In this document: positions 906 to 25,767 of the stretch, one piece after another
How positions within the stretch are numbered: position 1 is the stretch's first letter
Layout of the letters: every line of letters begins with the position of its first letter
Virus record (IMG/VR): IMGVR_UViG_3300032167_000022
DNA: 25,767 bases
Reading direction: 5' to 3' (one strand)
Origin: a virus
Translations under genes and position numbers: made by a program
The notes under the pieces: generated by a model
Told to the model about the DNA's origin: nothing
Seen by the model: only the letters and a program-made list of their open reading frames with translations
Databases searched by the model: none

Positions 906-1709
906 TTAATTTTCTTTCATTTTCTCTATATCCATATTCACTTTAACATTATGAATTTTTTTAACCAATTCTGCGTATTTAAACACAGTTTCACAATGAT
1001 GACAAGTATTATGCGACATACAGCGCTGGCCGCAATTCATTCTTCTAATTGCCAAGTCTTCTGGAATTAATCTATTATCAATATTAAAGTTTAAATTTGT
1101 AAATAAAAGATTTAAATTTCCAGGATATGATTCATTGTCTTTATAAATGTGGAATAATGTAGCTTCTTTTTCTATATCATCTCGTGTAAAAAATTCTAAA
1201 GTATCAACATATTTTTCATAATTCTTTACATCTTCTGGGCGTATCCAACTGCCATAAATACCATTTTCTTTTGGAATATAACTATCATAAGCAATGTTAG
1301 CAAATATTCTAATTGGGATATCAGTAATCTTTTTTACATTTTCCAAATCAAAAGATAATGGCGCCTCAAGGATAATATAGCACGGTTTTTGTGCTATTAA
1401 GCTACGCAATTCATAATAAGTAAATACAGGATAATCCCAATAGAAAGGAATATTGTAATTGCGGCAATATTCTGCTAAATACATATCTTTAATTGCTAAC
1501 TTAAAATTAGCAGTGTCCGCATATTTTTGGAATAATGACCATTCACAATCTCTATTGGAACAATTTTTTGGAATTTCTAATATAAAAGATTTATCTGGAT
1601 AATCTTCAATATAATTCTTTAATCTTGCGATGTCATTTAATCTTACTTTAATTTCATCGGCTTTTTCTAAAACCTGTCTTGACTATCTATTGGAAATACA
1701 ATATTTCAT
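906..1709 (-). CDS. hypothetical protein with C-terminal Cys/His cluster; in-frame TAG at codon 9 (1683-1685)
   Basis: ATG at 1709 has a strong RBS (GGAGAGTGAG). Reading MKYCISNR-TAG-SRQVLEKADEIKV... continues in the same frame into the listed ORF 906..1484. The downstream ATG at 1484 has no SD. The C-terminus carries CGQRCMSHNTCHHCE. Confidence 0.5.
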
Positions 1710-1731: not shown

Positions 1732-1760
1732 ATTATACACTATATTTTTCTTTTTGTCAA
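1732..1760 (-). promoter_or_regulatory. promoter cassette TTGACA-17-TATAAT
   Basis: tgtcaa at 1755-1760 and attata at 1732-1737 on plus, i.e. a consensus -35/-10 on the minus strand. Confidence 0.65.
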
Positions 1761-3995: not shown

Positions 3996-5180
3996 TTAGT
4001 TATTGGAAGGAGGAGTCATTACATTAACAGGAATAGGAGTCCGATTCATCATTGCGAACAAAGGAAGCATATCCTTCATATCATTCTTACCACTCATAAA
4101 CGCATACATAAACATGGGATTATTCGTAAGATTGAAATTACTATTCATCATCATCAGAGGGAATACCTTTTCTACGCTTGCGTCATCATCCATCAGAAGG
4201 AAAGGAAGCATATTACCAAACGGATTGTCTGCGGTTGCGGTGTTATTAAGATTAAACAGCGAGACTACCTGCGTTACGAAATCAAAACCGAACGGCGAGC
4301 GCACAGGCAGAATCATCTTTTCCTCACCGTTGATTACATCAATAACAAGCAGCTTCTTGTTATTTTCAACAGCTTCCTTAACAAACATGGGCTTCCGCTG
4401 ATGAATAATTACTGCGCCAGGAATTACATCCTTAATCGCAACCGGCATCTTCCACATCCACTTGCCGCCATCAAAATTCAGAATATCCACATCCACAATA
4501 TCACCAGTCTGCTGGTTATAAGAAACCCAATTACCAGCAGCATTCTTTACGGCAAGACCATAGAGAGACATACGGACATTATCATTTTCGCAAGAACCAA
4601 AATCAAAATTAAAACCCTTCATCATTGTTTTATTCTCCTTATCATTTTCTTTATCAAGATTATAATTATCTACATCAAGTTTTGTCGCATAAAGATTATC
4701 AATGTCATCTTTAACTACATCAATACGTTTACTCAAACAATCAATTGATTCACTTAAAGATTGTGCGGAAGTTCTATAATTTAGCATTTCATCAGTAGTC
4801 ATTTTCATGCAATAATCAGTTAATTCCCCAAGAGCATTAACAGCTCCACCAGTTATATTAACTTTTTCAGGTTCAGGCATATCTAATTTTATAGTTTTAA
4901 AATATTGGTCAAATAAAAATTCACCAAATGAATTATCATCAATCCTAAAATAATATTCGTCAAGAAAATTTTCTTCATGGACACAAATTTCAGGACCAAG
5001 TAATTCAATATAAATTAAACCTTCAAATTCTGATAAATTACGCCATTTATTATAACCCAATTTATCATACTTTTTATCTTTTACTTCTTTGTTAAAAAGA
5101 GTTAATACAACATTAACCCACTCATTATTTGAAAAACATTCTATCTTATTCTTTTGTGCTACAATAGTTTCATTTGACAT
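3996..5180 (-). CDS. hypothetical protein, Met-rich C-terminus
   Basis: 394 aa ORF with RBS GAGAGGAAGT 7 nt before the ATG and a TAA stop. Confidence 0.8.
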   Translation of the reverse strand: MSNETIVAQKNKIECFSNNEWVNVVLTLFNKEVKDKKYDKLGYNKWRNLSEFEGLIYIELLGPEICVHEENFLDEYYFRIDDNSFGEFLFDQYFKTIKLDMPEPEKVNITGGAVNALGELTDYCMKMTTDEMLNYRTSAQSLSESIDCLSKRIDVVKDDIDNLYATKLDVDNYNLDKENDKENKTMMKGFNFDFGSCENDNVRMSLYGLAVKNAAGNWVSYNQQTGDIVDVDILNFDGGKWMWKMPVAIKDVIPGAVIIHQRKPMFVKEAVENNKKLLVIDVINGEEKMILPVRSPFGFDFVTQVVSLFNLNNTATADNPFGNMLPFLLMDDDASVEKVFPLMMMNSNFNLTNNPMFMYAFMSGKNDMKDMLPLFAMMNRTPIPVNVMTPPSNN

Positions 5181-5335
5181 CGCTTACTTACTTCCTCTCT
5201 AATATAGTCCAATTCAGCAGGAGAAAAATCTTCTATAATACTATAAGTACCATTTTCAATTATCTGCTGAACGACCATATCTAATTTTTCTTTTCTATCC
5301 ATCAAAAAAAGAGGCAAATATAAATTATCAAACAT
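5159..5335 (-). CDS. possible small coupled ORF (about 58 aa)
   Basis: Its ATG lies 2 nt after the TAA of the upstream gene (TAAtATG). It reads MFDNLYLPLFLMDRKEKLDMVVQQIIENGTYSIIEDFSPAELDYIREEVSKRCQMKLL and ends at a TAG overlapping the next gene start. It has no SD of its own. Confidence 0.3.
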   Translation of the reverse strand: MFDNLYLPLFLMDRKEKLDMVVQQIIENGTYSIIEDFSPAELDYIREEVSKRCQMKLL

Positions 5336-6411: not shown

Positions 6412-6704
6412 TAAAAGATATCATCTCCCTTTGCTTCTTCTACTTTATCGGTAATGCTGGTGAAATTAAGATTATTCAGACAAACAGTTAAATGAACGCC
6501 ATAATCATGATTGTATCCATTAACATAGAATTTAGTATCAGGAAATTCATTAAAAAGTGTAGATACTGCGCAATGAATTTCATAATAAAGCTGTTCTTTG
6601 CGTGCATCTTCACGAGATTCTAATTCATTCTGAAGAGCATCAATCATAACCTTTAAGTCTTCAGACTTATATTCAGCGATATTATTAAGGTTAATAGTAT
6701 TCAT
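6411..6704 (-). CDS. hypothetical protein
   Basis: 97 aa ORF, TAA stop, tightly packed in an operon. Confidence 0.7.
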   Translation of the reverse strand: MNTINLNNIAEYKSEDLKVMIDALQNELESREDARKEQLYYEIHCAVSTLFNEFPDTKFYVNGYNHDYGVHLTVCLNNLNFTSITDKVEEAKGDDIF

Positions 6705-7950: not shown

Positions 7951-8226
7951 TTATATTTTTTCTACATGGTATTGTATTGTGGAGTATATTACTTCTCTGT
8001 AATAATTATCCACATCCTCATCAGTTATTTCTTCTTCGCCTGAATGAATTAATTCCTCACGACACTCTTCCCAAGATAGATAACCGTTGCCGCCGCAATT
8101 ACTTTCATAATCCTCAATGGCTCGTTTCTCCGCGTAATCAAGTGCGGCGGCCGGTGTCTCAAATTCCAATTCCTCTTGGAATTCTGCCTAATGAGTTCCC
8201 GCATAATAGATGTTAAATTTACTCAT
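7951..8226 (-). CDS. hypothetical acidic protein; in-frame TAG at codon 13 (8188-8190)
   Basis: ATG at 8226 overlaps the upstream stop (ATGAGTAA). Reads MSKFNIYYAGTH-TAG-AEFQEELEFETPAAALDYAEKR... The ORF track only found the portion after the TAG, starting at TTG 8169. Confidence 0.5.
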
Positions 8227-8464
8227 TTAATTTCCTCGCTACTATTGGTTCAATATAAATATCTTTTTCCTCTAAGATTTGAATTAATTTTTGTAAATCT
8301 TCTTTGCCCATATTATATTCTGAAGTTTTTCCACTCCTATAATAGAATGTTACTGTAGGTCTTTTCTTACTATCACAAGCATTACTGATATTAACTTGTT
8401 CTACAAAATTAAGATTAATATAATCTACGCGGTCAGAAATTACAAGTTTAAAAAAATTATTCAT
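8219..8464 (-). CDS. hypothetical protein
   Basis: 81 aa ORF with a TAA stop; overlaps neighbours at both ends. Confidence 0.7.
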   Translation of the reverse strand: MNNFFKLVISDRVDYINLNFVEQVNISNACDSKKRPTVTFYYRSGKTSEYNMGKEDLQKLIQILEEKDIYIEPIVARKLNE

Positions 8465-8798
8465 TTTCTATTATCTCCTGTTTTACACAATCACGAATAA
8501 TACGTTTGCTTAAAGAAGGGTCTTTCTTCCATAAGTCAGACCACGCAATCCAATCGTATTGATTGGTTACGATGCCGGTAATATCATAAATTTCATTATC
8601 AATTTTTGTGGCGAAATGATTTTCTACTTCGTCATACATAATTTCACATTGGACATTTGGTTCGGCAGAGAAACGTCCATGGAGAATATAAGCGAACCAG
8701 AAGCAATTGCCGCAAGTGAAGCATTCAATTACTTGTTTGCGGTCGCCAGCCTATGTGAAATGGTCAATGAAGTCTAAGACACGATTGGGGTCAATCAT
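8457..8798 (-). CDS. hypothetical CxxC-containing protein; in-frame TAG at codon 16 (8751-8753)
   Basis: ATG at 8798 has SD AGGAGGAAG and an ATG..TGA overlap with the upstream gene. Reads MIDPNRVLDFIDHFT-TAG-AGDRKQVIECFTCGNCFWF...CEIMYDEVENHF, in frame with the listed ORF 8457..8639. There is no TAA or TGA in the extension. Confidence 0.55.
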
Positions 8799-9258
8799 TA
8801 GTTTCTTCCTCCTGGATAATAGATTTGTGGTTCTCACATGAATTTAATTGTCTACGGCAACCATTTTCTTTATCGTAACAAGGACAACCTTTTTCACAGG
8901 TAATTTGGATGCGCAACGGGTTTTTTACTTGTTGTTGAATTACCATGTTTCCCTGACGGATTTGTTGTTGAATTACTTTCAGCACTGGAGATGGGTCGCT
9001 TTCAAAAAGACAAGTTGAAGAATTGCGGCAACCAGCGCAAGTAGATAAGGCTAGTCGGCATTCATCACAGATTGCGCCTCCAGGAGTTAGGAAAATTGGT
9101 AAAGTTAAAATGCGGTGACATTGCGCGCAGGTGAAAGGTTCGGCATTATGCCGAGAACAATAATCAATTTCTGGGTTTATCTAATGCCCGAGCAACTGAC
9201 ATACAGGTTGCTAGGGGTCTCGGAAACCGCAAGTTTTACAATATTTAATTTCTTTCAT
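8791..9258 (-). CDS. Cys-rich zinc-finger-like protein; in-frame TAGs at 9211-9213 and 9181-9183
   Basis: From the ATG at 9258 it reads MKEIKYCKTCGFRDP-TAG-QPVCQLLGH-TAG-INPEIDYCSRHNAEPFTCAQCHRIL...CDECRL..CAGC..., continuous with the listed ORF 8791..8985. It has multiple CxxC pairs and no TAA or TGA for about 155 codons; it ends with a TGA stop. Confidence 0.55.
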
Positions 9259-9270
9259 ATTACGATACTT

Positions 9271-9473
9271 TTATTCAATTACAACTTTAGCTATTACAGA
9301 TTCTACAATTTCTCCAGTTTGAAAATGTCTTAATTCGCCGGTTTTAATATTTACAGCATTGGGTTCTTCACAATTAATTTTCATAAAACATTCATCGCCG
9401 CATCTAAAAACACTTCCGCAACGAACTCTATATACAGTCGTCATAGGTTTTGTATTATTATAAACAATATTCA
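9271..9473 (-). CDS. hypothetical protein
   Basis: 67 aa ORF; TAATG overlap with the upstream gene. Confidence 0.65.
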
Positions 9474-9686
9474 TTATTTAACTACTACCTCCACATCTAC
9501 TTTTTCTACTGCTTCATAAGTATTAATCCATAATGTATGGCCACTCTCAAGAGAAACTGCGTCGCCCGAATTTGAGCCTAACTTATATAATTTTAGATAA
9601 AGATTACCATGATAGAGGAAAGCATCTCCGGGGTTAAGTTCATTAAAAGACATGACGAAATATTTTTGACTATAAGTAATTTTCAT
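9474..9686 (-). CDS. hypothetical protein
   Basis: 70 aa ORF with RBS AAGGAGA 8 nt before the ATG; first gene after the promoter at 9719. Confidence 0.7.
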   Translation of the reverse strand: MKITYSQKYFVMSFNELNPGDAFLYHGNLYLKLYKLGSNSGDAVSLESGHTLWINTYEAVEKVDVEVVVK

Positions 9687-9718
9687 TATTTTATCTCCTT
9701 TTTTTATTTTGTATATAT

Positions 9719-9747
9719 ATTATATCATATTTTTTTATAAATGTCAA
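9719..9747 (-). promoter_or_regulatory. promoter cassette TTGACA-17-TGaTATAAT
   Basis: tgtcaa at 9742-9747 and attata at 9719-9724, then tca. Confidence 0.7.
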
Positions 9748-9769
9748 TAGAGTTATTGTTAATTAGAAA

Positions 9770-9990
9770 AGGGTAAAATTTAATAGTTAGTAAAATTTTA
9801 GGTAATTTTTCATAGTTAGTAAGTAATATTTTTATTAATTTTTTAATAGAAATATTATTAGAATATTACTTTTAAAAAAGGTAAAATTACCTAAAAATAT
9901 TGGACAAAAAAGGTAAAATATAAATAAATGAAATTGAAATAATTGTGCGACTAGAAAGGTAATTTTTCATAGTTAGTAAAATTTAGATTG
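9770..9990. repeat. iteron cluster (about 22-bp repeats AGGGTAATTTTTcATAGTTAGTAA) upstream of the rep-like gene
   Basis: Copies at about 9776-9798, 9812-9835 and 9955-9985, plus related AGGTAAAAT half-sites at 9880-9925. The last copy abuts the rep RBS. Confidence 0.6.
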
Positions 9991-10001
9991 GAGGTTTCCT
10001 T

Positions 10002-10685
10002 GTGGTAAAATCAAAAGATTAGATTGAAAAAAGGTTTCCTGCGGATACTACATTAGATTATGAAACTTTTTTAAATACAAATACATTAGATGGTGAATTG
10101 TATGGATTGTTATAGTCTATTTCAATAGCAGAAAAAGTTTGTAAAAAAGATGATAAGGGTGTGGCTTATGAAGTATATGAAACAGTAGTAAAGAAATCAA
10201 TTATTCCAAAACAAATAGATATGTGTGAAAAATTAAAAATTAAAAGTCCAAAAACATTAAGAGCGCATTTGAAGTCATTAAAAGATTAGGGGTATTTAGT
10301 GGAAAAAGAGAATGGAGATTATTATTTGCCAGTAAAAGAAAATATTTATTTAGATATTCCTTTAGCAACTTTAGAATATTTATAGGATAACTGTCGGGAA
10401 CATATTATTAAAATTTATATTTATTTAGTTTAGAAATATAAATATAAAGAAGATTAGAATAAAAGATTAAAATAGTAGGAAAATTATATTTTTACTTTGA
10501 ATGAAATAGCAGAACATATAGGTATATATATAAAAAATAATTAGAGAGCTTATGATATAATTAATCACGCTTTAGAATTATTATATAATTCAAAATTAAT
10601 TGACTATGAAACCATTTATATTAATAAAGTACCAAAGAAAAAATTATTAAATGTATCTTTAGTATATAATAGTAAAAAGAAATAA
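10002..10685 (+). CDS. Rep-like (two winged-helix segments) replication initiator candidate, open only if TAG is read as sense (9 in-frame TAGs)
   Basis: GTG at 10002 follows GGAGGT by 6 nt. Codon-by-codon reading has no TAA or TGA until the TAA at 10683. TAGs lie at 10020, 10113, 10287, 10383, 10431, 10455, 10473, 10476 and 10542. The translation has WH-like segments KQIDMCEKLKIKSPKTLRAHLKSLKD.GYLVEKENGDYYL and FTLNEIAEHIGIYIKNN.RAYDIINHALELLYNSKLIDYET. Flanked by iterons. Confidence 0.55.
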
Positions 10686-10770
10686 AAGGGTAATTTTTAA
10701 TAGTTAGTGAGGGCAATTTTTAATAGTTAGTAAAAAGGAAAAAAGGGTAATTTTTCATATTATATCTAAA
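10686..10770. repeat. iteron copies downstream of the rep-like gene
   Basis: aaaagggtaatttttaatagttagtga, gggcaatttttaatagttagtaa and a partial third copy. Confidence 0.55.
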
Positions 10771-10796
10771 TAATACTAAAAACTAAATAATTAACA

Positions 10797-10836
10797 AAGC
10801 GAAATTTATGTTCCAGCTATCGCTTGGAACATAAAT
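10797..10836. repeat. perfect 15-bp inverted repeat (gaaatttatgttcca N9 tggaacataaatttc)
   Basis: Seen directly. Followed by ttatagaaaattttttt; a candidate terminator or operator between the rep-like gene and the 10902 ORF. Confidence 0.5.
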
Positions 10837-10901
10837 TTCTTATAGAAAATTTTTTTCTGTTGATAGGGGCGGAAAACTGAAGTGAAAAAGGAGAATTCAA
10901 A

Positions 10902-11123
10902 ATGGAAGTCGGTTTTGTAAAATTAAGTGAAAATGATTATCATTCAGGTTTATCAGAGGTTGCGAAGCAGCCTCATAGAAAAGTAAAAGAATTGTATATA
11001 GATGAAACAACTGGAAAAATTTTCTTTGTTTTAGAAAATAAAAGAAGAGTTGATAAAGATAAAAAAATATGCTATAATATATTTGAAAATAAAAATGAAA
11101 GAGAGGATAATCCTTTTTTATAG
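10902..11123 (+). CDS. hypothetical protein (possibly extended to 11182 if TAG is read through)
   Basis: RBS AAAAAGGAGAAT before the ATG. It ends at a TAG; the same frame continues through a second TAG to a TGA at 11180-11182. Confidence 0.55.
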   Translation: MEVGFVKLSENDYHSGLSEVAKQPHRKVKELYIDETTGKIFFVLENKRRVDKDKKICYNIFENKNEREDNPFL

Positions 11124-11224
11124 GGTATGAATTTTAATTTTGATGATGCGGATTCTATTTTATAGAATGTATTTGAAAAATGAAATGAAAAAGGGACCCT
11201 TTCAGAAAGGTGAATTGAAAACTC

Positions 11225-11536
11225 ATGAGGCATTGTGGTACGTATGGTTATAAAAATGTTTATTTAATTGATAGAGATAATTATTTTTTGAATGAGAAGA
11301 ATAAGGATAAAGAGAATTATTTTATTATTGAAGATGATGATAGGTGGTTAGTTTTTAAAGGTAAAGTTGTTGGTAGAGTAGGATTAGATATGAAAGTTAA
11401 AGAGTTTGGGAGCAATAAATGTTGGGTATATGAAAAGTTAAAGAAAGAGAAAGAAAAGGAAAAAGATAATTATTTTAGTCAATATAGTACGGTAGTTGAT
11501 AAGTTTTTTGCGGAATTGAAAGAGGTTAAGTTATGA
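11225..11536 (+). CDS. hypothetical protein, K/E-rich
   Basis: RBS AAAGGTGA before the ATG; 103 aa; its stop overlaps the next start (ATGA). Confidence 0.55.
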   Translation: MRHCGTYGYKNVYLIDRDNYFLNEKNKDKENYFIIEDDDRWLVFKGKVVGRVGLDMKVKEFGSNKCWVYEKLKKEKEKEKDNYFSQYSTVVDKFFAELKEVKL

Positions 11537-11733
11537 TAGGGGTCGCGGCAGGTGTAGTAGTTGGCTTGGTGCTAGGCGCAGTTGTTAGGTATGTGTTGAA
11601 AAGAGTTTCTTTTTCTTCTGCTCTTGGATGTTGGTTGTTGAGAGGGTTTGAGGCGGAGGAGAGGAAGAGGTTTAAGGAGATTGGCAAGGAGAGAAGGAAG
11701 TTGTTGCGGCAGGGAGTTATTTGGGTGTTGTGA
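11533..11733 (+). CDS. small protein with N-terminal TM helix and basic C-terminus
   Basis: 66 aa, MIGVAAGVVVGLVLGAVVRYVL...; ATGA overlap; GC-rich. Confidence 0.45.
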   Translation: MIGVAAGVVVGLVLGAVVRYVLKRVSFSSALGCWLLRGFEAEERKRFKEIGKERRKLLRQGVIWVL

Positions 11734-11736
11734 TAG

Positions 11737-11870
11737 TAGGTAGGTAACAATATAGATAATAGGTAGTAGGTAGTAAGTAATAGGTTGATAATGGATAACA
11801 ACTGTATAGATAATAGATAATAATTATATAGATAATAATAAGTAAATAAAGTAATAAGTAATAAAAATTG
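11737..11870. repeat. C-depleted purine/T low-complexity block rich in TAG, GTAA and ATAA motifs
   Basis: tgatagtaggtaggtaac...ataggtagtaggtagtaagtaatagg...atagataatagataataatt... has almost no C on plus and stop codons in all frames. It is followed at 11915-11965 by a pyrimidine-only tract. Confidence 0.6.
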
Positions 11871-11966
11871 CGAAAATTGGAGAGGTGTCGTGCCGTTCGG
11901 CTCCACTAGACACTCATCACTTTTCCCTCGTCATCGTCATCCCTCATCCTTTCTTAATAAAAAATA

Positions 11967-12005
11967 AAGAGAGACATTTTCTTGTGTCTCTCTTTTTCTC
12001 ATTTT
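11967..12005. terminator. rho-independent terminator for the plus-strand module (bidirectional)
   Basis: Hairpin aaagagagaca-ttttctt-gtgtctctcttt followed by ttctcatttt. Confidence 0.7.
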
Positions 12006-12071
12006 ATAGTTCAATTTGCCAATTTTCGCAATCTGTAGCCCTCTCAAAACATTTTTACGAACATCTTTTCA

Positions 12072-12110
12072 CATCAAATAAAAAAGCCACGAAAATCGTG
12101 GCTTAAAATA
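12072..12110 (-). terminator. rho-independent terminator 3' of the 12111 gene
   Basis: Hairpin aagccacg-aaaat-cgtggctt; the reverse complement is followed by ttttttatttg. Confidence 0.65.
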
Positions 12111-12557
12111 TTAAATACCATTGTTCTTAAAGAAAGTATCAAAAACATTATCCAAATTAGACTTATCAGTCTTAATTGAGAGGGTAGCATTGCCAGGCTT
12201 CAGCATATGAGCAAAATTACCAAACATAGAGAATGCTTCGCGCATTTCCGCAACAGTTTCATCAACCAAATCAACAAGGTCTTCTGCGGTGATATCAATA
12301 TCCTTATACTGGGCGGCAAGGTTGGGGTACCAGCGCTTAATGTAGGCTGCGATAGCATCCTTCATCTTGCCCATGTCCGCAATCTTATCTGCCCTCTCCT
12401 GGACCTTCTTTCTAGCCTCTTCTTCCTTAGCCTCTGCTCTCTTGGCTTCGTCAATCTTTTTTGCCTCGTTCAGTGCGGCGGTGAATTCCTTGGCAATATC
12501 ATCTACAGATTTGCCCTCCTGAATCATCTTAAGAATGTCATTAGAATTGTAATTCAT
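12111..12557 (-). CDS. hypothetical protein, charged helical N-terminus
   Basis: 148 aa ORF with RBS AAGGAGAT 8 nt before the ATG and a TAA stop. Confidence 0.75.
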   Translation of the reverse strand: MNYNSNDILKMIQEGKSVDDIAKEFTAALNEAKKIDEAKRAEAKEEEARKKVQERADKIADMGKMKDAIAAYIKRWYPNLAAQYKDIDITAEDLVDLVDETVAEMREAFSMFGNFAHMLKPGNATLSIKTDKSNLDNVFDTFFKNNGI

Positions 12558-12589
12558 AATTTTATCTCCTTTTTTTATTTTGTATATAT

Positions 12590-12618
12590 ATTATATCATA
12601 AATTTTTAAAAAAGTCAA
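12590..12618 (-). promoter_or_regulatory. promoter cassette TTGACT-17-TGaTATAAT
   Basis: agtcaa at 12613-12618 and attata at 12590-12595, then tca. Confidence 0.7.
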
Positions 12619-12740
12619 ATTTCGGCATTTTAAGCCACGCAAAAAAATTTTTGAGTAAATGTGAGGGAGAGGGTCTTTATTTAAGCCGTAGCTCTCAATA
12701 GATAAGCACTGGCGTATCTCTGGAGAAATCGCGCGTTCAT

Positions 12741-12778
12741 AAAAATTTTACAAAAATTTTTACAAAAATTTTACAATT
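12741..12778. repeat. tandem repeat (AAAAATTTTTACA) x3
   Basis: ttttacaaaaatttttacaaaaattttacaa seen directly. Confidence 0.6.
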
Positions 12779-12779
12779 C

Positions 12780-13050
12780 CGGTCGGCTGGCTGGGGTACT
12801 AGAATTATAGGAAAATGCGCATATAGGCTGAGGGTCGCTAGAAGTAGCAAAAAATTCGCATATGGGGGTCCGAACGGGAACTCGGTCCGCAGCGCCCGCG
12901 CCCGGACCGCTTGACAGGTGTAGAATATGGGAAAATCTGGCTGGACTGGAAAATCCTGGAAATCGCCGCAAAATTTTGTAAATATGGTAAAAAATGGAAA
13001 TCCCGCCCTGCGCGAGCGCAATCGGGCGGCGCAAATGTGAACAAATCTAT
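12780..13050. other. GC-rich non-coding island with repeated GGAAAAT and gcatatgg motifs and several GC hairpins
   Basis: Only spurious overlapping ORFs and no RBS. Hairpins include cggtccg..cggaccg and cgccctgcgcgagcgcaatcgggcggcg. Repeated motifs include ggaaaatgcgcatatagg, aaaattcgcatatggggg and ggaaaatctggctggactggaaaatcctggaaatcgcc. Confidence 0.4.
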
Positions 13051-13100
13051 CATAATTTGTAAACAAATTATTTTTGTATAAAATAACGAAAAAGAAGTGG

Positions 13101-13370
13101 TCATTTGACCACTTCTTCAATAAATGAACCAAGGCAATTAACAATGGTTGTTAAATTGATATATTCATTCAAATCATCAGAATAATAATCGTCATCACCA
13201 AAAATGTTGTCATTGTTAATTTTTTCCAAAATAGCAAAAGCTGTTCGTAACTGCTCTTTAGCGCCCTGTTTTTGATGTGATTTAATAGCACTTTCAACGT
13301 TAGCAAGCTTCTGTTTCAAAGCATTGTATTCGTTCATTAAATCAAGTAAAGTTTCTTCATTCGGCTTCAT
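13101..13370 (-). CDS. hypothetical protein
   Basis: The track ORF starts at TTG 13448, but the SD GGAGGA precedes the ATGs at 13370-13379. Reads MKPNEETLLDLMNEYNALKQKLANVESAIKSHQ... with a TGA stop. Confidence 0.6.
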   Translation of the reverse strand: MKPNEETLLDLMNEYNALKQKLANVESAIKSHQKQGAKEQLRTAFAILEKINNDNIFGDDDYYSDDLNEYINLTTIVNCLGSFIEEVVK

Positions 13371-13512
13371 CTTCATCATCCTCCTCATCTTCTTCTTCTT
13401 CGTACTCTTCTTCCTGCTCACAAGGTGCCCAACCTTCCGGGCCTTCAAAGTGGCAATGGGCGTATTTCTCGCACTCTTCTTTCCAACAGTAGCCGCATTC
13501 TTTACAAGTCAT
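13357..13512 (-). CDS. small Cys-rich protein with polyacidic tail
   Basis: GGAGGT lies 9 nt before the ATG. Reads MTCKECGYCWKEECEKYAHCHFEGPEGWAPCEQEEEYEEEEDEEDDEDEAE; its TGA overlaps codons 4-5 of the downstream gene (ATGAAGCCGAATGA). Confidence 0.45.
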   Translation of the reverse strand: MTCKECGYCWKEECEKYAHCHFEGPEGWAPCEQEEEYEEEEDEEDDEDEAE

Positions 13513-13536
13513 TTTCTTTACCTCCATGAAGGGCGA

Positions 13537-13944
13537 TTACTCGCCCTTCCCCGCAAACAGTTGAAACATTTTCATCATTTCAGTAAGCCTGTTGAATTCT
13601 TCGTGCCAGTTTTCCCAAGTGTCAGAATTACGATTGAAATAAATCAACGTGGTATCAGTATCTTTGAAAACATGGCTAAGAGCAGGTAATTCACCATCAA
13701 AAATAAAATCATCCAGCTCCATATAACTTCCATCTTCGTAATTATCTTCTTTTACAAGAATATAATATACATCATCGGATTCAAAATGCTCGTCATTAGT
13801 GTCAAGAAGATGTCCATTGATATCATAACAGGAGAAAGGTTCAAACACCTGCTTAATGTGGAGTTCTTCTTCATACTGTACGCAGTCAAATTCATCTTCA
13901 AACTGCGTGCCATCTTCTGCGATAAAATACATTACTTTTTCCAT
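13537..13944 (-). CDS. hypothetical acidic protein
   Basis: 135 aa ORF; its TAA stop sits in the loop of hairpin gaagggcga-ttac-tcgcccttc. Confidence 0.75.
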   Translation of the reverse strand: MEKVMYFIAEDGTQFEDEFDCVQYEEELHIKQVFEPFSCYDINGHLLDTNDEHFESDDVYYILVKEDNYEDGSYMELDDFIFDGELPALSHVFKDTDTTLIYFNRNSDTWENWHEEFNRLTEMMKMFQLFAGKGE

Positions 13945-13988
13945 TTTATTTTACTCTCTTTCTCCCCCCCTCTCTGGGGGGTACTATT

Positions 13989-14017
13989 ATTATACCATAC
14001 TTTGCGCGATTTGTCAA
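13989..14017 (-). promoter_or_regulatory. promoter cassette TTGACA-17-TGgTATAAT with 5' leader hairpin
   Basis: tgtcaa at 14012-14017 and attata at 13989-13994, then cca. Leader cccccccagagagggggg (reverse complement of 13958-13978). Confidence 0.75.
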
Positions 14018-14023
14018 GGGGTT

Positions 14024-14251
14024 TTATAAAAGTTTTTCAAGTTTTTTTGTGTATGCTTCATAGTTTGCTTCAAGGAACAAATATTCAATACCAAGATACT
14101 GGCACAGAGTAGTCGCTCCAAGCATTCGCTGTTTTGCGTTATCTACGATTTCAAGGGGCGTGTAAAGATTGCGTTCAAGCGCTCTTTCTGCGTCTTTTAC
14201 TTCCTGCTCAAAGTATTCAATCAACTTTTCGCTGATTACAAGTGTATTCAT
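14024..14251 (-). CDS. hypothetical protein
   Basis: SD GGAGGAAT before the ATG at 14251 (MNTLVISEKLIEYFEQEVK...). The track's longer version starts from an alternative start inside the upstream gene. Confidence 0.6.
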   Translation of the reverse strand: MNTLVISEKLIEYFEQEVKDAERALERNLYTPLEIVDNAKQRMLGATTLCQYLGIEYLFLEANYEAYTKKLEKLL

Positions 14252-14252
14252 T

Positions 14253-14450
14253 TTATTTATTCCTCCATGCGTCTTTAGAATGTTCTTCAATGCGTCCATC
14301 TGCGCGATACCATTTAATGTAAGTGAAGTAAGTAGTTTCAAATACAATGCCATCAACCGCAGGAAGGGCAGACTTGATACAGAAATTTTTTCCTTTATGT
14401 ACTTTTACTCTTGCGGTAGCTTCTAAAAGGTCGCTCATCCACATATCCAT
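14253..14450 (-). CDS. hypothetical protein
   Basis: 65 aa ORF, first after the promoter at 14491; RBS AGAAAGAGAG. Confidence 0.55.
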   Translation of the reverse strand: MDMWMSDLLEATARVKVHKGKNFCIKSALPAVDGIVFETTYFTYIKWYRADGRIEEHSKDAWRNK

Positions 14451-14490
14451 TTTATTTGCTCTCTTTCTGTTGGTTCTTTACTGTATATAT

Positions 14491-14519
14491 ATTATATCAT
14501 ATTTTTATAAAAATGTCAA
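14491..14519 (-). promoter_or_regulatory. promoter cassette TTGACA-17-TGaTATAAT
   Basis: tgtcaa at 14514-14519 and attata at 14491-14496, then tca. Confidence 0.7.
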
Positions 14520-14620
14520 TAGATATTCTTGTTTATTTACAAAATGTTCATAATTGCGGGATTTGTGCGGTTTGTACAAAAATGTTAAAAAAATTTCTGA
14601 AAATTTGTATAGATTACCAC

Positions 14621-14657
14621 TTGACAAAATAACGCCCGTGGCCTCCGGTCGCGGGCG
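14621..14657 (-). terminator. rho-independent terminator
   Basis: Hairpin cgcccgtggcctccggtcgcgggcg; the reverse complement is followed by ttattttgtc. Confidence 0.6.
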
Positions 14658-14714
14658 TTTGAACAAATCAAGTATATTTTGTAAATAAATTATGAACACA
14701 GCATTTTCGTCATT

Positions 14715-14751
14715 ATGCACAAAAGAAAATCCCTCTACATCAGTAGAGGGA
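14715..14751 (-). terminator. rho-independent terminator overlapping the stop of the 14735 gene
   Basis: Hairpin atccctctac-atca-gtagagggat; the reverse complement is followed by tttcttttgtg. The TAG stop lies in the stem. Confidence 0.65.
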
Positions 14752-15133
14752 TTGTATAAGTTTTGCGGATGGTAATTTCTACCTGTGGTGGAATTTCATG
14801 GAGAACAAAGCGGTCGTTCCGCACATATTCACCAATTCCCATTTCCTGCCACTTTTGGCGGTTTCTGTCCTCAAAACGCAGAGTATTATATTTTGAAAGG
14901 GGCAGCTTCCATAAATAGGTAAATTTGCCATCTGGCGGCATTGTGTGTTCAGGGCTTTTCCTATAATTGCGCGTGTGCTCTGCCTGTCTGCGCTTTAGGT
15001 CGTTAGTTGTTCCAATCTTTAGAACAAAATTTTTGTCGGTATCGTGGTAAAAACCCACATAAAGAAACTCTTTTTCTGCCATTTTTGCATCTTTTTGACT
15101 AAAATTTAAGTGAAAAGTGGGAAAAATTCCCAC
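14735..15133 (-). CDS. GIY-YIG-like nuclease domain protein
   Basis: EFLYVGFYHD...FVLKIGTTNDLKRRQAEH matches the GIY-YIG core (KIG.T.....RR...H). It ends in TAG; if TAG is sense, a 14-codon extension runs to the next TAA. Confidence 0.7.
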   Translation of the reverse strand: MGIFPTFHLNFSQKDAKMAEKEFLYVGFYHDTDKNFVLKIGTTNDLKRRQAEHTRNYRKSPEHTMPPDGKFTYLWKLPLSKYNTLRFEDRNRQKWQEMGIGEYVRNDRFVLHEIPPQVEITIRKTYTIPLLM

Positions 15134-15139
15134 TTTTCT

Positions 15140-15553
15140 TTACTTTTTGGGCTTTCGCTTCTGAACAAGCGTCAATTCAAAGGCATCTTCACCAATTTTG
15201 AACGCAATTTGCCGTTCTTTGTTGGTAATTTCCACATCTTCGGTCGCAAACTGACTGTTTTTTGTCAAAAACTCCGCCAATTCTGCGATTATTCCGCCCT
15301 TTGTGGGATTTGCCTTGCGCTCACGCTGGGAGAAATTGTAAACAGTAGGCTTGCGGTCGCGGCAGTTAGCCATACGCATCGCTTCCTTCTCTGTCTCCTT
15401 GTCAAGGTCGTACGCCAGCCTGTCATTAGCGGAAGCCTTCTCAACTTCCTTGTCATAGGACAAAACCTCAAGAGCTTCTTCTTCGGTACAGCGCAAGCCC
15501 TCTTGAATTCGCTTGACTTGCGCTTTGTCGGCTCGGGTCAGTTCCATCTTCAT
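15140..15553 (-). CDS. hypothetical protein (module partner B; paralog of 19305..19661)
   Basis: RBS AAAGAGGTG. Its C-terminal half is similar to the 19305 gene product. Confidence 0.75.
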   Translation of the reverse strand: MKMELTRADKAQVKRIQEGLRCTEEEALEVLSYDKEVEKASANDRLAYDLDKETEKEAMRMANCRDRKPTVYNFSQRERKANPTKGGIIAELAEFLTKNSQFATEDVEITNKERQIAFKIGEDAFELTLVQKRKPKK

Positions 15554-15572
15554 CACCTCTTTTGGTTAGGCG

Positions 15573-15594
15573 TGGCAGAGGATTAAACCTCTGC
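15573..15594 (-). other. conserved inter-cistronic RNA hairpin enclosing the stop codon (ggcagagg-tttaa-tcctctgcc)
   Basis: Seen directly. The counterpart at 19679-19700 has a different stem and the same loop. Confidence 0.6.
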
Positions 15595-15981
15595 CAGCTT
15601 GAAGTAGGAAACGCGCTTTTCAATCACCTTTTCCATCTTGCCATCTTCTACCAGCTGACGGACAAGCGCAGTGATTCTCTGCTGGGACAGTCCAGCGCAT
15701 TCGGGAACATTCTTGATGAAGTCAGTAACGGTGTGCTGACCGCCATCATTTGCGAGGTAGTCAAGCATTGCCTGCTTCAGCGCATCGTTTGCTTCCTTCT
15801 TTTCCATCTGCTTGCCAGACGGCTTAGCGTTCTTACGAGCCAGTAGGTCAAGCTCATTTTCAATGAATTCAACGAGCGTGGGGTTAGATGCTACAGAGGG
15901 GATAGCGAGGAGGGCGTTGAAGTGGTCACGCTTGGTGAGCTTCTTTGCGGTAGCGTTGAGAGTAGAATTAGTGTTAGCCAT
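15583..15981 (-). CDS. winged-helix-like DNA-binding protein (paralog family A, member 2)
   Basis: 132 aa ORF; a close paralog of 19693..20082 (for example TVTDFIKNVPECAGLSQQRITALVRQLVEDGKMEKV). Leader ccatggtatcaatcctttcagc is shared. Confidence 0.8.
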   Translation of the reverse strand: MANTNSTLNATAKKLTKRDHFNALLAIPSVASNPTLVEFIENELDLLARKNAKPSGKQMEKKEANDALKQAMLDYLANDGGQHTVTDFIKNVPECAGLSQQRITALVRQLVEDGKMEKVIEKRVSYFKLAEV

Positions 15982-16061
15982 GGTATCAATCCTTTCAGCT
16001 GTTTAGGTTGCCAACCTTTTAATTTGTTTGCCGTGGTAGGTTTCCCTCACCCGGTATATAT

Positions 16062-16090
16062 ATTATACCATACTTTATGGTATTTGTCAA
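16062..16090 (-). promoter_or_regulatory. promoter cassette P1 of a tandem triple (TTGACA-17-TGgTATAAT)
   Basis: tgtcaa at 16085-16090 and attata at 16062-16067, then cca. UP-like ttgaaaaacttttcaaaaacc upstream. Confidence 0.75.
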
Positions 16091-16223
16091 GGGGTTTTTG
16101 AAAAGTTTTTCAAAAATTTTTTGCGATACTATCAAGATTTGAAGTCAATTTATCGCATTTTGGACTTCACTTGATGAGGAGATTTTTTACGAGGTTTTAC
16201 TCACCCTCGCCCCTGACATATAT

Positions 16224-16252
16224 ATTATACCATACTTTGAGCGATTTGTCAA
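16224..16252 (-). promoter_or_regulatory. promoter cassette P2 of the tandem triple
   Basis: tgtcaa at 16247-16252 and attata at 16224-16229. No ORF between it and P1. Confidence 0.75.
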
Positions 16253-16330
16253 GGGGTTTTTGAAAAGTTTTTCAAATTTTTTTGAGTGGCTTTCGGCGTC
16301 CCCGCGCATCCTTTTGTTTGGTACATATAT

Positions 16331-16359
16331 ATTATACCACACAATCACGTTTTTGTCAA
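16331..16359 (-). promoter_or_regulatory. promoter cassette P3 of the tandem triple
   Basis: tgtcaa at 16354-16359 and attata at 16331-16336, then cca. Confidence 0.7.
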
Positions 16360-16632
16360 GAGGTTTTTCAAAATTTCTCAAAAAATTTTTTCAATATCCA
16401 AGAACAAGTCAGATTGTCAATTTTTGGTAATGGTATAATATGTGAACGAGTCTATGTTCATTTGTTAATTTTTTATTACGGGAAAACGGCTAATTCACTT
16501 GATTGTTAATAAAATGTTTACAATTTTTTTATACGATATCTCTTGACAAAATTTCGCCCGTGACCTCCGGCCGCGGGCGACTCAAAAGTCAAGTGTTTTT
16601 TATAAATAATTTGTAAATAAATTATGAATGCC

Positions 16633-16668
16633 AAAAGTAAAAGAAAGAGAGGGGCTTGCGCCCTCTCC
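16633..16668 (-). terminator. rho-independent terminator
   Basis: Hairpin gagaggg-gcttgcg-ccctctc; the reverse complement is followed by tttcttttactttt. Confidence 0.6.
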
Positions 16669-16671
16669 TTA

Positions 16672-16905
16672 TTAAAATTCAAGAATCGGAATATCATCTT
16701 CCGCCGCATACACGCCGATAATTTCTTCACCATTATGAAGTTCACAGCGTGCCAGCAGTCTGTTTGTGATAATTTCTTTTGCTTCGGAATAATCTTCATC
16801 TTCTCCAAAAGTGGTAGGGTCTTTATGGATTTCATGAAGTCTTTCAAAAACTTCTTCATTTACATCCATTTCAATCGTGCGATAAAGTGTAACAGCAACT
16901 TTCAT
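16672..16905 (-). CDS. hypothetical acidic protein
   Basis: 77 aa ORF downstream of the promoter at 16948; TAA stop. Confidence 0.7.
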   Translation of the reverse strand: MKVAVTLYRTIEMDVNEEVFERLHEIHKDPTTFGEDEDYSEAKEIITNRLLARCELHNGEEIIGVYAAEDDIPILEF

Positions 16906-16947
16906 TTTATTTTACCTCTTTCTCCCCCCTTTATTGGGGGTACTATT

Positions 16948-16976
16948 ATTATATCACATTTCTTCGGATTTGTCAA
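16948..16976 (-). promoter_or_regulatory. promoter cassette TTGACA-17-TGaTATAAT with leader hairpin
   Basis: tgtcaa at 16971-16976 and attata at 16948-16953. Leader cccccaataaagggggga. Confidence 0.75.
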
Positions 16977-16982
16977 GGGGTT

Positions 16983-17240
16983 TTACAAAATTTCTACATT
17001 TTCCCACCAATCTATAAGTTTTACTTCTGTATAATAAGTATCCCACGATTCTTTTTTCTTTTTATCCCATTCTTCTTTTGCTTTAATAAATTTTTCCTGC
17101 ATATCTGTTTCGCTGGTGTAAGCACCCGTATAAAAAATTGTCTCTTTTGTCCAGTTGCCACGAGAGCCTTGTCCACCATCAACATAACAAGCGGGAACAT
17201 AAATTTTTGCCATTTTCATTTGCTTTACAATTCTTGTCAT
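16983..17240 (-). CDS. hypothetical protein
   Basis: 85 aa ORF; its stop overlaps the UP region of the next promoter. Confidence 0.7.
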   Translation of the reverse strand: MTRIVKQMKMAKIYVPACYVDGGQGSRGNWTKETIFYTGAYTSETDMQEKFIKAKEEWDKKKKESWDTYYTEVKLIDWWENVEIL

Positions 17241-17287
17241 TTTATTTTACCTCTCTCTTTTAGTGCCCCCTGTATTGGGGTACTATT

Positions 17288-17316
17288 ATTATACCACACT
17301 TTTGCTTATTTGTCAA
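17288..17316 (-). promoter_or_regulatory. promoter cassette TTGACA-17-TGgTATAAT with leader hairpin
   Basis: tgtcaa at 17311-17316 and attata at 17288-17293. Confidence 0.75.
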
Positions 17317-17333
17317 GGGATTTAGTAAAATTT

Positions 17334-17657
17334 TTATTCATTAAAAATATATTTCATTGTTTCATTTACCAAATCTTCATCATCATAAATAAATGCATAA
17401 CCATCTGCTGTACAAGCAAAAATAACTGCTTCATCTGCTTTACAATATGGTTTAACAATTTCATCCAGTAAATCACACAATTTATCAAAAGTTTTTCTAC
17501 GTGTCACAACATCTGTTTCTTTATAATGTTTATTTATATATATTGATTTATCAATAATCTGTTTGAAATCATTATTGTTTGTTTCAATTTTAATGATGCG
17601 ATGTCCAGTATCTTCTTCATCCATTTTACGTTTTGCTAAAATAATACCAAGTTTCAT
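17334..17657 (-). CDS. hypothetical protein
   Basis: 107 aa ORF. Confidence 0.7.
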   Translation of the reverse strand: MKLGIILAKRKMDEEDTGHRIIKIETNNNDFKQIIDKSIYINKHYKETDVVTRRKTFDKLCDLLDEIVKPYCKADEAVIFACTADGYAFIYDDEDLVNETMKYIFNE

Positions 17658-17699
17658 TTTGTTTTATTCCTTTCTATCCCCTGTATCGGGGATGTATAT

Positions 17700-17728
17700 A
17701 TTATACCACACTTTTTTGAATTTGTCAA
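17700..17728 (-). promoter_or_regulatory. promoter cassette TTGACA-17-TGgTATAAT with leader hairpin ccccgatacagggg
   Basis: tgtcaa at 17723-17728 and attata at 17700-17705. Confidence 0.75.
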
Positions 17729-17747
17729 TAGGTTTTGCGAAAGTTTT

Positions 17748-18221
17748 TTAAAGAATTTTTGTTTCGCTCACAAAATACTTTGCTTTGTTGGCTTCAAGCA
17801 GTCCTTTTACAATAAGGCTTTGCGCTTGCGTTTCTGCGTAAATGTTGAAAATGGTATATTTACCAATGTTGGGAATATAATTACAAGAAATTCCATTTTC
17901 TCTTAAGTCATTATAAAGGCTTTCGGTGTAAGGCTCACACACAGATGCTTCAATCTTCCAGAGTTTATCTTTACGCGCCTTTTCCTCTACAAACTTAATA
18001 ATCCATACGCAGATGAAATTTGCGATGGCAGTAATTGCCATATTCACCAAAATGCCTACGGTGCCTTGCGCGGTCAGCATGACAATCAGAGGATAGAAAC
18101 CATAACAAACCGCATTCATCACAGCGGACAGCCATTTACCGCTTTTAATGGTGGTAATGGCGCGGATAGTGGAAAGTGATACGTTAATTACAGTAGCGAT
18201 TGCAAAAATTAAAATATTCAT
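17748..18221 (-). CDS. membrane protein (about 3 TM helices) with C-terminal soluble domain
   Basis: Hydrophobic N-terminal 100 aa (MNILIFAIATVINVSL...ITAIANFICVWIIKF) followed by a polar domain. Confidence 0.75.
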   Translation of the reverse strand: MNILIFAIATVINVSLSTIRAITTIKSGKWLSAVMNAVCYGFYPLIVMLTAQGTVGILVNMAITAIANFICVWIIKFVEEKARKDKLWKIEASVCEPYTESLYNDLRENGISCNYIPNIGKYTIFNIYAETQAQSLIVKGLLEANKAKYFVSETKIL

Positions 18222-18227
18222 TTTTTT

Positions 18228-18464: not shown

Positions 18465-18506
18465 TTGTTTTACCTCTTTCTACCCTCTCTCTTGGAGGGT
18501 ATATAT

Positions 18507-18535
18507 ATTATACCACATCCAAGAGAGAAAGTCAA
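18507..18535 (-). promoter_or_regulatory. promoter cassette TTGACT-17-TGgTATAAT with leader hairpin
   Basis: agtcaa at 18530-18535 and attata at 18507-18512. Confidence 0.7.
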
Positions 18536-18554
18536 TGTATAATTTGTATTTATT

Positions 18555-18986: not shown

Positions 18987-19031
18987 TGTTTTATCTCCTT
19001 TGCCTGTTGGCTCTTTGTTTTCTGTATATAT

Positions 19032-25764: not shown

Positions 25765-25767
25765 TGT

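Follow-up and report, generated by a model that had tools for sequence, protein, structure and literature searches.

Is TAG a sense codon in this phage, and if so, which amino acid does it specify and what decodes it? The question was raised by a first-pass annotation, made from the sequence alone, of the window analysed here, a stretch of 25,767 nucleotides (IMG/VR record IMGVR_UViG_3300032167_000022). It listed six reading frames that are open only if in-frame TAG is read through, proposed a code-15-like assignment of TAG to glutamine with TAA and TGA as true stops, and considered pseudogene decay very unlikely. All six frames exist as described. Each has between one and nine in-frame TAGs and no in-frame TAA or TGA, and each ends in TAA or TGA (Table 1).

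Table 1. Features of the window that bear on TAG usage.
Feature	Position	Strand	Remarks
g906, function unknown, 267 codons	906..1709	-	TAG codon 9 (1683..1685)
Perfect sigma-70-type promoter, TTGACA-17-TATAAT	1732..1760	-	Directly upstream of g906
Small gene ending in TAG, 58 aa by JGI call	5159..5335	-	Read-through adds 19 codons
g7951, 91 codons	7951..8226	-	TAG codon 13 (8188..8190)
g8457, phage YunG-like protein, 113 codons	8457..8798	-	TAG codon 16 (8751..8753)
g8791, Cys-rich protein, 155 codons	8791..9258	-	TAG codons 16 (9211..9213) and 26 (9181..9183)
Two TAG-free leader genes	9474..9686, 9271..9474	-	One operon with g8791, g8457 and g7951
Perfect extended -10 sigma-70 promoter, TTGACA-17-TG-TATAAT	9719..9747	-	Drives operon 9686 to 7951
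Three direct 19-nt iterons, GGTAAWWTTTMATAGTTAG	9772, 9801, 9958 (within 9772..9976)	+	Upstream of rep
Iteron half-sites, AAAAAAGGTAAAAT	9874, 9906	+	Upstream of rep
rep, rep-like tandem winged-helix DNA-binding protein (predicted), 227 codons	10002..10685	+	GC 22%; nine TAGs, at codons 7, 38, 96, 128, 144, 152, 158, 159 and 181 (positions 10020, 10113, 10287, 10383, 10431, 10455, 10473, 10476 and 10542)
Two further iterons	10689..10707, 10712..10730	+	Immediately downstream of rep
g10902, 93 codons	10902..11183	+	TAG codons 74 (11121..11123) and 88 (11163..11165)
TAG-free early region; numerous small genes, a consensus promoter for each	11526..25766	-	
Early-region gene ending in TAG	14735..15139	-	

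Shuffled versions of the six genes are expected to contain 5–20 TAA and TGA codons each, where none is observed. The probability of finding none by shuffling is <0.0005 for g906 and for rep (analytically 3e-9 and 6e-10) and 0.0005–0.0075 for the four short genes, and the off-frames of all six are full of TAA and TGA. Under translation table 11 the six yield 461 ORF codons, with no ORF of at least 50 aa from rep; with TAG as sense they yield 946, a gain of 485 codons, or about 1.45 kb and 5.6% of the window. That table 11 fragments the genes could be taken as a sign of decaying pseudogenes, or of TAGs that are assembly or sequencing errors, but the chance of either is practically nil. With genes from the flanks included, the 12 genes tested hold 1–10 TAGs each and zero TAA or TGA against 5–34 expected, diverged relatives keep TAG at the same positions, and essential genes are affected, the terminase among them. 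The TAGs of the window are not assembly errors, because contigs assembled independently in ENA, JGI and Logan are 100% identical to it over their overlaps, in more than 10 assemblies. These observations refute both explanations, and the dismissal of pseudogene decay in the first-pass annotation stands.

The window is a piece of a large dsDNA phage whose contig measures 91 kb or more; in the 90,957-bp ENA contig ERZ27248370 k141_2926279 the window occupies 10056..35822. The hosts are probably Bacillota present in gut or rumen samples. Phages of its clade are 130–200 kb long and combine a terminase of the SPbeta/YonF type with large arrays of tRNA genes. A terminase of the clade, P0083, which is about 87% identical to the phage's own, has 44–50% identity to the terminases of phAss-1, Enterococcus phages (about 49–50% for VRE9_4, H1 and EF1) and Geobacillus virus E3, and 35% to the "YonF" of Brevibacillus phage Sundance. 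A YonG_N domain protein adjoins the large terminase in the phage, and in close relatives YonD_N, YonB, YomW, YomV and YomU are found downstream of the terminase. Judged by these similarities, the phage has the terminase and Yon/Yom module of the SPbeta/YonF-terminase large Bacillota phages; it also has the large tRNA array of that group. Megablast with the window gave no nucleotide match to a phage in GenBank, an Rfam search of the window at the gathering threshold gave no match, and the phage's peptidase had no match in IMG/VR. A 78-aa protein encoded in the tRNA array found a single relative in IMG/VR, at 42%; homologs of this protein were seen on short contigs only.

The use of TAG as sense is not confined to the window. 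In the flanks on the same 91-kb contig, three genes of a glycosyltransferase cluster have 7, 7 and 10 TAGs, and in the packaging module just beyond the edge of the window a 352-aa protein has 4, the YonG_N protein 4 and the large terminase at least 5. Reading TAG as sense makes these genes full length, so there is the gain of coding sequence elsewhere on the contig that the recoding called for. The TAGs of the packaging module contradict the earlier suggestion that recoding falls on early and replication genes rather than structural ones. TAG use is sharply bimodal between genes: there are no TAGs in about 30 early genes, 1–2 in four genes behind consensus promoters, and 4–10 per gene in an upper mode comprising rep, the glycosyltransferase cluster and the packaging genes. 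The early-type promoter that had been placed at 9719 is real (TTGACA-17-TATAAT, running from 9747 to 9719), and about 28 promoters of its type occur in the TAG-free early region. Consensus promoters stand before the tRNA array as well as before the early genes without TAG and several genes that contain it. As a terminator, TAG is depleted in the phage. All curated genes end in TAA or TGA save the two listed in Table 1, and roughly 2–5 of about 65 genes are TAG-terminated by a crude gene list that counts TAGs close to where short ORFs end. The end of the gene at 5159..5335 is an example of TAG still terminating.

The tendency of TAGs to cluster near N-termini, noted in the first-pass annotation, holds for g906, g7951, g8457 and g8791, and does not hold for rep or g10902. 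Since the TAGs of those four genes lie within the first 26 codons, the true proteins might start downstream of them and the upstream open frame be fortuitous, but we regard this as extremely improbable. The N-termini before the TAGs are conserved at the protein level in relatives, which have sense codons in the same columns. The MSKFNIY of g7951 is MPRFKIY in relative L028, where the TAG column is GGT, and the VLDFID of g8457 is conserved in L028 with AGC in the TAG column. The g8457 protein, whose ATG overlaps the g8791 stop, matches Pfam PF24591 (YunG, E 5e-11) over residues 22–78; the match begins upstream of the first start available under table 11, which is only at residue 54. In g906 there is no ATG, GTG or TTG for 65 codons past the TAG, and the codon 9 column in 80 relatives is CAA or CAG in 42, TAG in 8 and other residues in 30. 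The g8791 homolog in L028 has its TAGs at the neighbouring columns 17 and 25; TAG26 of the window is matched by CAA, and CAA17 of the window by TAG. As for g10902, relative L025 keeps both TAGs, the stretch that separates them and the stretch that follows, and has a third TAG at codon 27.

Such swaps between TAG and CAA run in both directions between the phage and its relatives, and the conserved TAG positions correspond to glutamine, as the first-pass annotation had expected. All five terminase TAGs align to CAA or CAG in five relatives whose terminases are 84–93% identical and whose late genes have no TAG. In rep, the columns of TAG38 and TAG144 are TAG in 19–20 relatives and Gln in 7–8, with every non-TAG relative having Gln, and the CAA at codon 71 has TAG as its counterpart in relatives. 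Among the aligned codons other than TAG taken together, Q is the commonest residue (71), followed by S (27). TAG at variable sites aligns to many residues, and in one gene of the glycosyltransferase cluster it aligns to W or Y in 3–4 homologs. Within the clade, TAGs are found in 51 of 66 full-length terminases from IMG/VR and in 20 of 26 that are MAG-binned. At the level of homologs and codons, then, TAG is shown to sit inside real conserved coding sequences and to stand for glutamine at their conserved sites, and TAA and TGA to terminate.

A different amino acid could be considered, either pyrrolysine or serine or leucine inserted by a type-II suppressor. ARAGORN labels the CUA tRNAs as "Pyl", three relatives have tRNA(CUA) genes with a long variable arm (88–93 nt), and a similarity comparison matched the relatives' tRNA(CUA) to no one isoacceptor type. 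This is very improbable nonetheless, as the conserved sites are Gln in the non-TAG homologs (five of five in the terminase, 38 and 144 in rep, and a plurality in g906). Pyrrolysine decoding in particular is rejected, with pylT, pylS and pylBCD absent among the Pfam matches listed for the 43 kb of phage sequence examined and with TAG aligning to Gln.

What reads the TAGs is approached from the tRNA genes. The 43 kb (41.6 kb and a 1.4-kb extension) includes nine tRNAs of the phage's array, which lie left of the window. ARAGORN, the Rfam tRNA model and a purpose-made search of 7-nt hairpin loops for CUA detected no tRNA(CUA) there, and no gene for a release factor, GlnRS or another synthetase was seen. 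Weak tRNA-like matches at 20930..20994 and 20275..20337 of L001 have no CUA anticodon. We attribute the failure to find a suppressor in the 43 kb to the phage's tRNA array running on past it, for about 4.8 kb (positions 36189..40982 of JGI contig Ga0257090_10004978, 3300024268). Relatives have up to 28 tRNAs within 10 kb, and the homologous arrays of six relatives do contain tRNA(CUA). TAG might instead be read as Gln with no phage suppressor at all, by a near-cognate host tRNA-Gln after inhibition or depletion of RF1, or by a suppressor of the host. This would agree with the lack of a suppressor in the 43 kb and in the visible part of the arrays of several heavily recoded relatives, and with Borges et al. 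(10.1101/2021.08.26.457843), who detected suppressors in only 35–40% of recoded phages. We think it improbable all the same, given that the phage's own array is seen only in part, that tRNA(CUA) genes are present in phAss-1 and in relatives of the clade, and that nine TAGs in a gene of 227 codons demand very efficient read-through.

Our preferred explanation, which we hold as a whole to be very probable, is that the phage applies code 15 to some of its genes, encodes a tRNA(CUA), and delays translation of the TAG genes. The amber suppressor would come from the early-transcribed tRNA array and be charged with glutamine by the host synthetase. Ribosomes would stop at TAG until the suppressor accumulates, and therefore TAG-bearing genes would be translated later than TAG-free ones, even from the same strong host-type promoters, a timing that we infer from promoters and gene content alone. 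TAGs at codons 9–26 would abort translation cheaply, and the few early genes ending in TAG may, once infection is advanced, gain short extensions.

Of the genes seen, rep depends most on TAG. It starts with a GTG 7 nt after GGAGG, TAG supplies 9 of its 10 glutamines, and it has TAGs at Gln positions common to about 20 diverged relatives. There are about 96 homologs, with lengths of about 200–215 aa. An AF2 model of a homolog that is 80% identical (pLDDT 92) has a two-winged-helix fold, and the protein is accordingly predicted to have a tandem winged-helix DNA-binding fold. This is the fold of iteron-binding winged-helix initiators (plasmid RepA_N, PDB 4pta and 5kbj, and RepE) and of primosome proteins of the DnaD/DnaB type. 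As with initiators of the iteron type, rep has direct repeats on both sides, which in relatives vary in step with the protein. The 19-nt iterons around it come to five copies in total plus the half-sites, and repeats in an equivalent arrangement flank the rep homologs of three relatives (L028, L032 and L040). The region is AT-rich and lies at a switch in gene orientation and a turn in GC skew. A homolog that is 24% identical is found on a 7-kb circular plasmid. Searches against curated Rep families (Rep_3, RepA_N and RepL) did not place rep in any of them, giving only weak matches to HTH_11, LexA_DNA_bind and HTH_36; one of 23 rep homologs matched RepL (E 0.006), and a PHROG search with rep had no match.

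The TAG dependence of the iteron-flanked rep raises the question of whether the code switch licenses genome replication in the clade, beyond late and lysis genes. We think this unlikely. Because 9 of 10 glutamines of rep are TAG, synthesis of the initiator, and hence origin firing, would under such licensing need the phage suppressor, and the N-terminal TAGs would be cheap translational gates on genes with early-type consensus promoters. Four IMG/VR contigs carry both rep and a late gene, and both genes are recoded in all four.

The finding is real and not new in kind, because gut phages that recode TAG, a related group among them, have been reported before. Code 15 is known in crAss-like, Lak, Garnet, Amethyst and some Agate phages (10.1101/2021.08.26.457843; PMC9523058), and the phenomenon itself is already established. 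The present phage resembles them in that in-frame TAG aligns with Gln and TAA and TGA are kept as stops, in the bimodal division into standard-code early genes and recoded structural genes, in the close relationship of recoded and unrecoded members with suppressor tRNAs in part of the clade, and in a predicted host with the standard code. It differs in belonging to a lineage with an SPbeta/YonF-type terminase that probably infects Bacillota, in that the strongest recoding in the window is in the iteron-flanked rep, and in that several recoded genes share consensus promoters with early genes. The first-pass annotation had thought recoded replication genes unusual, but Borges et al. (10.1101/2021.08.26.457843) already report variable recoding there. 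The related group is that of phAss-1, a proposed Phassvirus genus within a broader monophyletic group to which Enterococcus phage EF1 belongs (PMC10607447). The phAss-1 genome of about 136 kb has 36 tRNA genes and three tRNA-Sup-CTA genes. TAG is read there as Gln in 41 ORFs, among them TerL and several genes for DNA processing; a dedicated synthetase is lacking, and the predicted hosts are Eubacteriales (PMC10607447). Its terminase is 44% identical to P0083. The relationship is a distant one, and phAss-1 differs in having suppressor tRNAs where none was found in the 43 kb here.

The local interest lies in an iteron-flanked rep in which 90% of the glutamines are encoded by TAG, and in N-terminal TAGs behind consensus promoters. 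A putative initiator and genes with strong promoters would be incomplete without TAG suppression, which makes the phage a test case for translational timing. It also adds a lineage of Bacillota phages in which recoded and unrecoded members are less than 10% apart in the terminase, which suits the study of how code changes originate. Standard annotation with table 11 fragments or loses about a sixth of the phage's genes, as the JGI calls do, and therefore gene calling for the phage, and for most of its large clade, has to take code 15 into account. For g906, table 11 leaves only 906..1484, and the calls on identical DNA are 192 aa in JGI versus 267 aa in ENA. The ENA and Logan gene calls already render the in-frame TAGs as Q.

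The window is AT-rich phage DNA with the layout given in the table below, where genes are named by their first coordinate. It was translated with TAG marked apart, and the six frames that the first-pass annotation had proposed to be open only if TAG is sense are as described. Their TAGs are in frame, none holds a TAA or TGA, and all terminate at one of these two codons. Shuffles of each of the six genes gave an expectation of 5–20 TAA plus TGA per gene versus the zero observed; the probability of having none was below 0.0005 for g906 and the rep-like gene, and 0.0005–0.0075 for the short genes. The standard bacterial code (table 11) leaves no 50-aa ORF in rep and removes most of the Pfam YunG-like domain of g8457; g906 is shortened by 75 residues, and the 65 codons 3' of its TAG offer no possible start codon.

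Features of the window and its flanks (negative positions lie left of the window; L001 and L017 are loci mapped onto the flanks)
Feature	Position	Strand	Remarks
Minus-strand genes	3-9686	-	
g906	906..1709	-	1 TAG
g7951	7951..8226	-	1 TAG
g8457	8457..8798	-	1 TAG
g8791	8791..9258	-	2 TAGs
Short plus-strand block	10002-11536	+	
rep	10002..10685	+	9 TAGs; 22% GC
g10902	10902..11183	+	2 TAGs; 25% GC
Long region of small genes	11526-window end	-	
Glycosyltransferase cluster	contig -4266..-1648		17–19% GC
352-aa protein	packaging module	+	4 TAGs
YonG_N protein	packaging module	+	4 TAGs
Large terminase	packaging module	+	5 TAGs within first 353 codons
TTGACA-17-TATAAT-type promoter	-7513		ahead of part of tRNA array
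TTGACA-17-TATAAT-type promoter	1760		ahead of g906
TTGACA-17-TATAAT-type promoter	9747		ahead of operon 9686 to 7951
tRNA array segment	L017 16876..20440 (window about -5391..-8955)		
Putative ArfA-like ORF	L017 19143..19292 (window about -7658..-7807)		49 aa
tRNA-like elements	L001 18398..19300 and 20275..20994 (window about -4486..-7082)		no tRNA call
ORF-poor stretches	12560..13100, 16000..16520, 22990..23590, 24460..25430		0.5–1 kb
Repeat/duplication pairs	15140..16002 vs 19305..20115; 14477..14724 vs 19018..19266; 20158..20226 vs 21190..21258		early region

The TAGs are not an assembly artefact. Exact-protein look-up placed the window at positions 10056..35822 of ENA contig ERZ27248370 k141_2926279 (90,957 bp) and on numerous contigs of other samples (JGI, ENA and Logan), and by BLAST the overlaps are identical or differ by one mismatch, all TAG sites included. 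The ENA gene calls read through TAG in g906 (267 aa), g7951 (91 aa) and g8457 (113 aa). One public gene-calling pipeline thus already handles such recoding, and JGI gene calling splits the identical DNA into fragments. Reading TAG as sense also opens genes elsewhere on the contig, within the 41.6 kb around the window examined by joining two fetched loci. On the left flank three genes in a row carry 7, 7 and 10 TAGs, and one of them encodes a GT2 glycosyltransferase domain; the right flank has a plus-strand packaging module from about 30.6 kb; all these genes are free of in-frame TAA and TGA. The initial view that recoding affects the replication module rather than structural genes does not survive the TAGs of the packaging genes: recoding extends to structural and packaging genes.

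Judged from homologs, TAG is read as glutamine, as in code 15. All five TAG columns of the terminase are Q in 13 homologs and, at the codon level, CAA or CAG in the five relatives whose terminase is translatable by table 11. Three of these five are 93% identical in terminase and have six late genes without any TAG; an unrecoded relative just 7% distant is of modest interest. Rep has about 96 homologs of similar length. At the columns of TAG38 and TAG144, 19–20 relatives likewise hold TAG and the other 7–8 hold only CAA or CAG; at CAA71 of the window, where Q is invariant, six relatives have TAG. In g8791, aligned with a relative, TAG26 of the window faces CAA and CAA17 faces TAG. At codon 9 of g906, 42 relatives have CAA/CAG, 8 have TAG and 30 have another residue. 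Variable TAG sites show many residues, as expected; when all aligned codons other than TAG are pooled, Q occurs most often. In g10902, one relative keeps both TAGs and the C-terminal tail. The N-termini of g8457 and g7951 are conserved 5' of the TAG, which rules out that these proteins begin downstream of it.

The rep product is a predicted two-winged-helix protein (AF2 model of an 80%-identical homolog, pLDDT 92) with weak Pfam matches to HTH_11, LexA_DNA_bind and HTH_36. The gene is flanked by five 19-nt direct repeats plus half-sites, an arrangement that relatives share with their own repeat sequence. It lies in a 24% GC region at a switch of gene orientation and a turn of GC skew, and a 24%-identical homolog is found on a 7-kb circular plasmid. 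Our best guess, which we consider fairly probable, is a replication initiator or origin-binding protein; an autoregulated transcription factor is a less likely alternative. The very high TAG dependence of this iteron-flanked gene, conserved across the clade, is of modest interest.

This is code 15 phage recoding of a kind already reported for a related group. P0083, a terminase of the clade, matches that of this phage at about 87% identity over the part read. It shares 44–50% identity with the terminases of phAss-1, Enterococcus phages VRE9_4, H1 and EF1, and Geobacillus virus E3, and 35% with "YonF" of Brevibacillus phage Sundance. The description of phAss-1 and a wider monophyletic group gives, for phAss-1, 41 ORFs in which TAG encodes Gln, 36 tRNAs and three tRNA-Sup-CTA genes (Babkin et al. 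2023, PMC10607447). Borges et al. (10.1101/2021.08.26.457843) described the general phenomenon in phages, with close relatives both recoded and unrecoded and recoding variable in replication genes. Relatives of our phage in IMG/VR and ENA measure 130–200 kb. In-frame TAG occurs in 51 of 66 full-length terminase homologs in IMG/VR (1–14 each) and in 20 of 26 MAG-binned relatives with the terminase frame read, some partial. The MAG labels, mostly Clostridia and other Bacillota, are a weak hint of host, as mis-binning happens easily with phage contigs.

No tRNA was found within the window. A tRNA array begins about 5.4 kb to its left, and the nine tRNAs in its readable part (Leu-UAG, Leu-CAA, Lys, Glu, Met, Ile, Asn, Met and Ser-ACU) include none with a CUA anticodon; the array runs on into about 4.8 kb more. 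ARAGORN finds tRNA(CUA) in the arrays of six relatives, three of normal length and three with a long variable arm, so this phage likely encodes a suppressor as well. Suppressor tRNAs are detectable in just 35–40% of recoded phages (Borges et al., 10.1101/2021.08.26.457843).

Several other features were noted. In the array, ARAGORN assigns to Leu a type-I tRNA of 77 nt (anticodon UAG) that has no long arm. The Ser-ACU is a well-formed type-II tRNA with A34, and A34 tRNAs (AGU, AGA, AAU, AAA, ACC, AAG) are common clade-wide. A 49-aa ORF inside the array carries the C-terminal motif KGKGSYKRK of ArfA, the alternative ribosome-rescue factor A. It matches PF03889 (E 1.8e-5; 24.6 bits, slightly below the 25.5 cutoff), is kept in one relative, and may have a role in termination or ribosome rescue in a recoded phage. 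The tRNA-like elements of L001 include two weak Rfam tRNA matches, a YrlA/Y-RNA-like match (34.5 bits, under the gathering score) and some 500 nt of GC-rich sequence in which acceptor, D and T arms are present but a normal anticodon arm is not. One relative, L059 (IMGVR_UViG_3300031555_003080), encodes a pair of opal suppressors, tRNA(UCA), within its array (6584..6657 and 10543..10616), so the clade may also include TGA-recoded members.

TAG use is bimodal between genes. About 30 early genes, among them every gene checked at 11.5–25.7 kb, have none. Four genes carry one or two, at codons 9–26. The count rises to 4–10 per gene in rep, the glycosyltransferase cluster and the packaging genes, where TAG makes up 25–90% of Gln positions (90% in rep). 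Some 28 perfect TTGACA-17-TATAAT promoters precede small TAG-free genes, and matches at 11 of 12 positions are found ahead of both the glycosyltransferase cluster and the packaging module. On the simplest reading, host RNA polymerase would transcribe TAG-free genes, tRNAs and TAG-bearing genes all early. The TAG-free genes and tRNAs would be expressed at once, and TAG-bearing messages would give full-length protein only once suppressor had accumulated. TAG still terminates two to five genes, whose products would be 14–19 residues longer on suppression. N-terminal TAGs behind early-type consensus promoters are of modest interest.

The promoters form an unusually uniform and dense set, about one per small gene, with the extended -10 consensus TTGACA-17-TG-TATAAT; they run over 12618..25709 (minus strand) and on to about 28655 of the contig, with others at 9747 and 1760. 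Extreme AT-richness coincides with the most TAG-rich genes (window 10002..11183 and the glycosyltransferase cluster), early genes being 40–52% GC, which suggests another origin or mutational history for the former. Several independent assemblies stop or diverge at ~25750-25760, beside a poly-K/poly-A tract, and the last 30 bases of the window differ from the ENA contig; ~25737..25767 is likely a variable junction or assembly breakpoint. The ORF-poor stretches, without a convincing ORF in either code, have no Rfam match at the gathering threshold; small RNAs or very short genes may lie there. The early region also contains DNA repeats at 82% and 96% identity and a duplicated two-gene cassette, whose paralogs are about 60% identical at the protein level in relatives.
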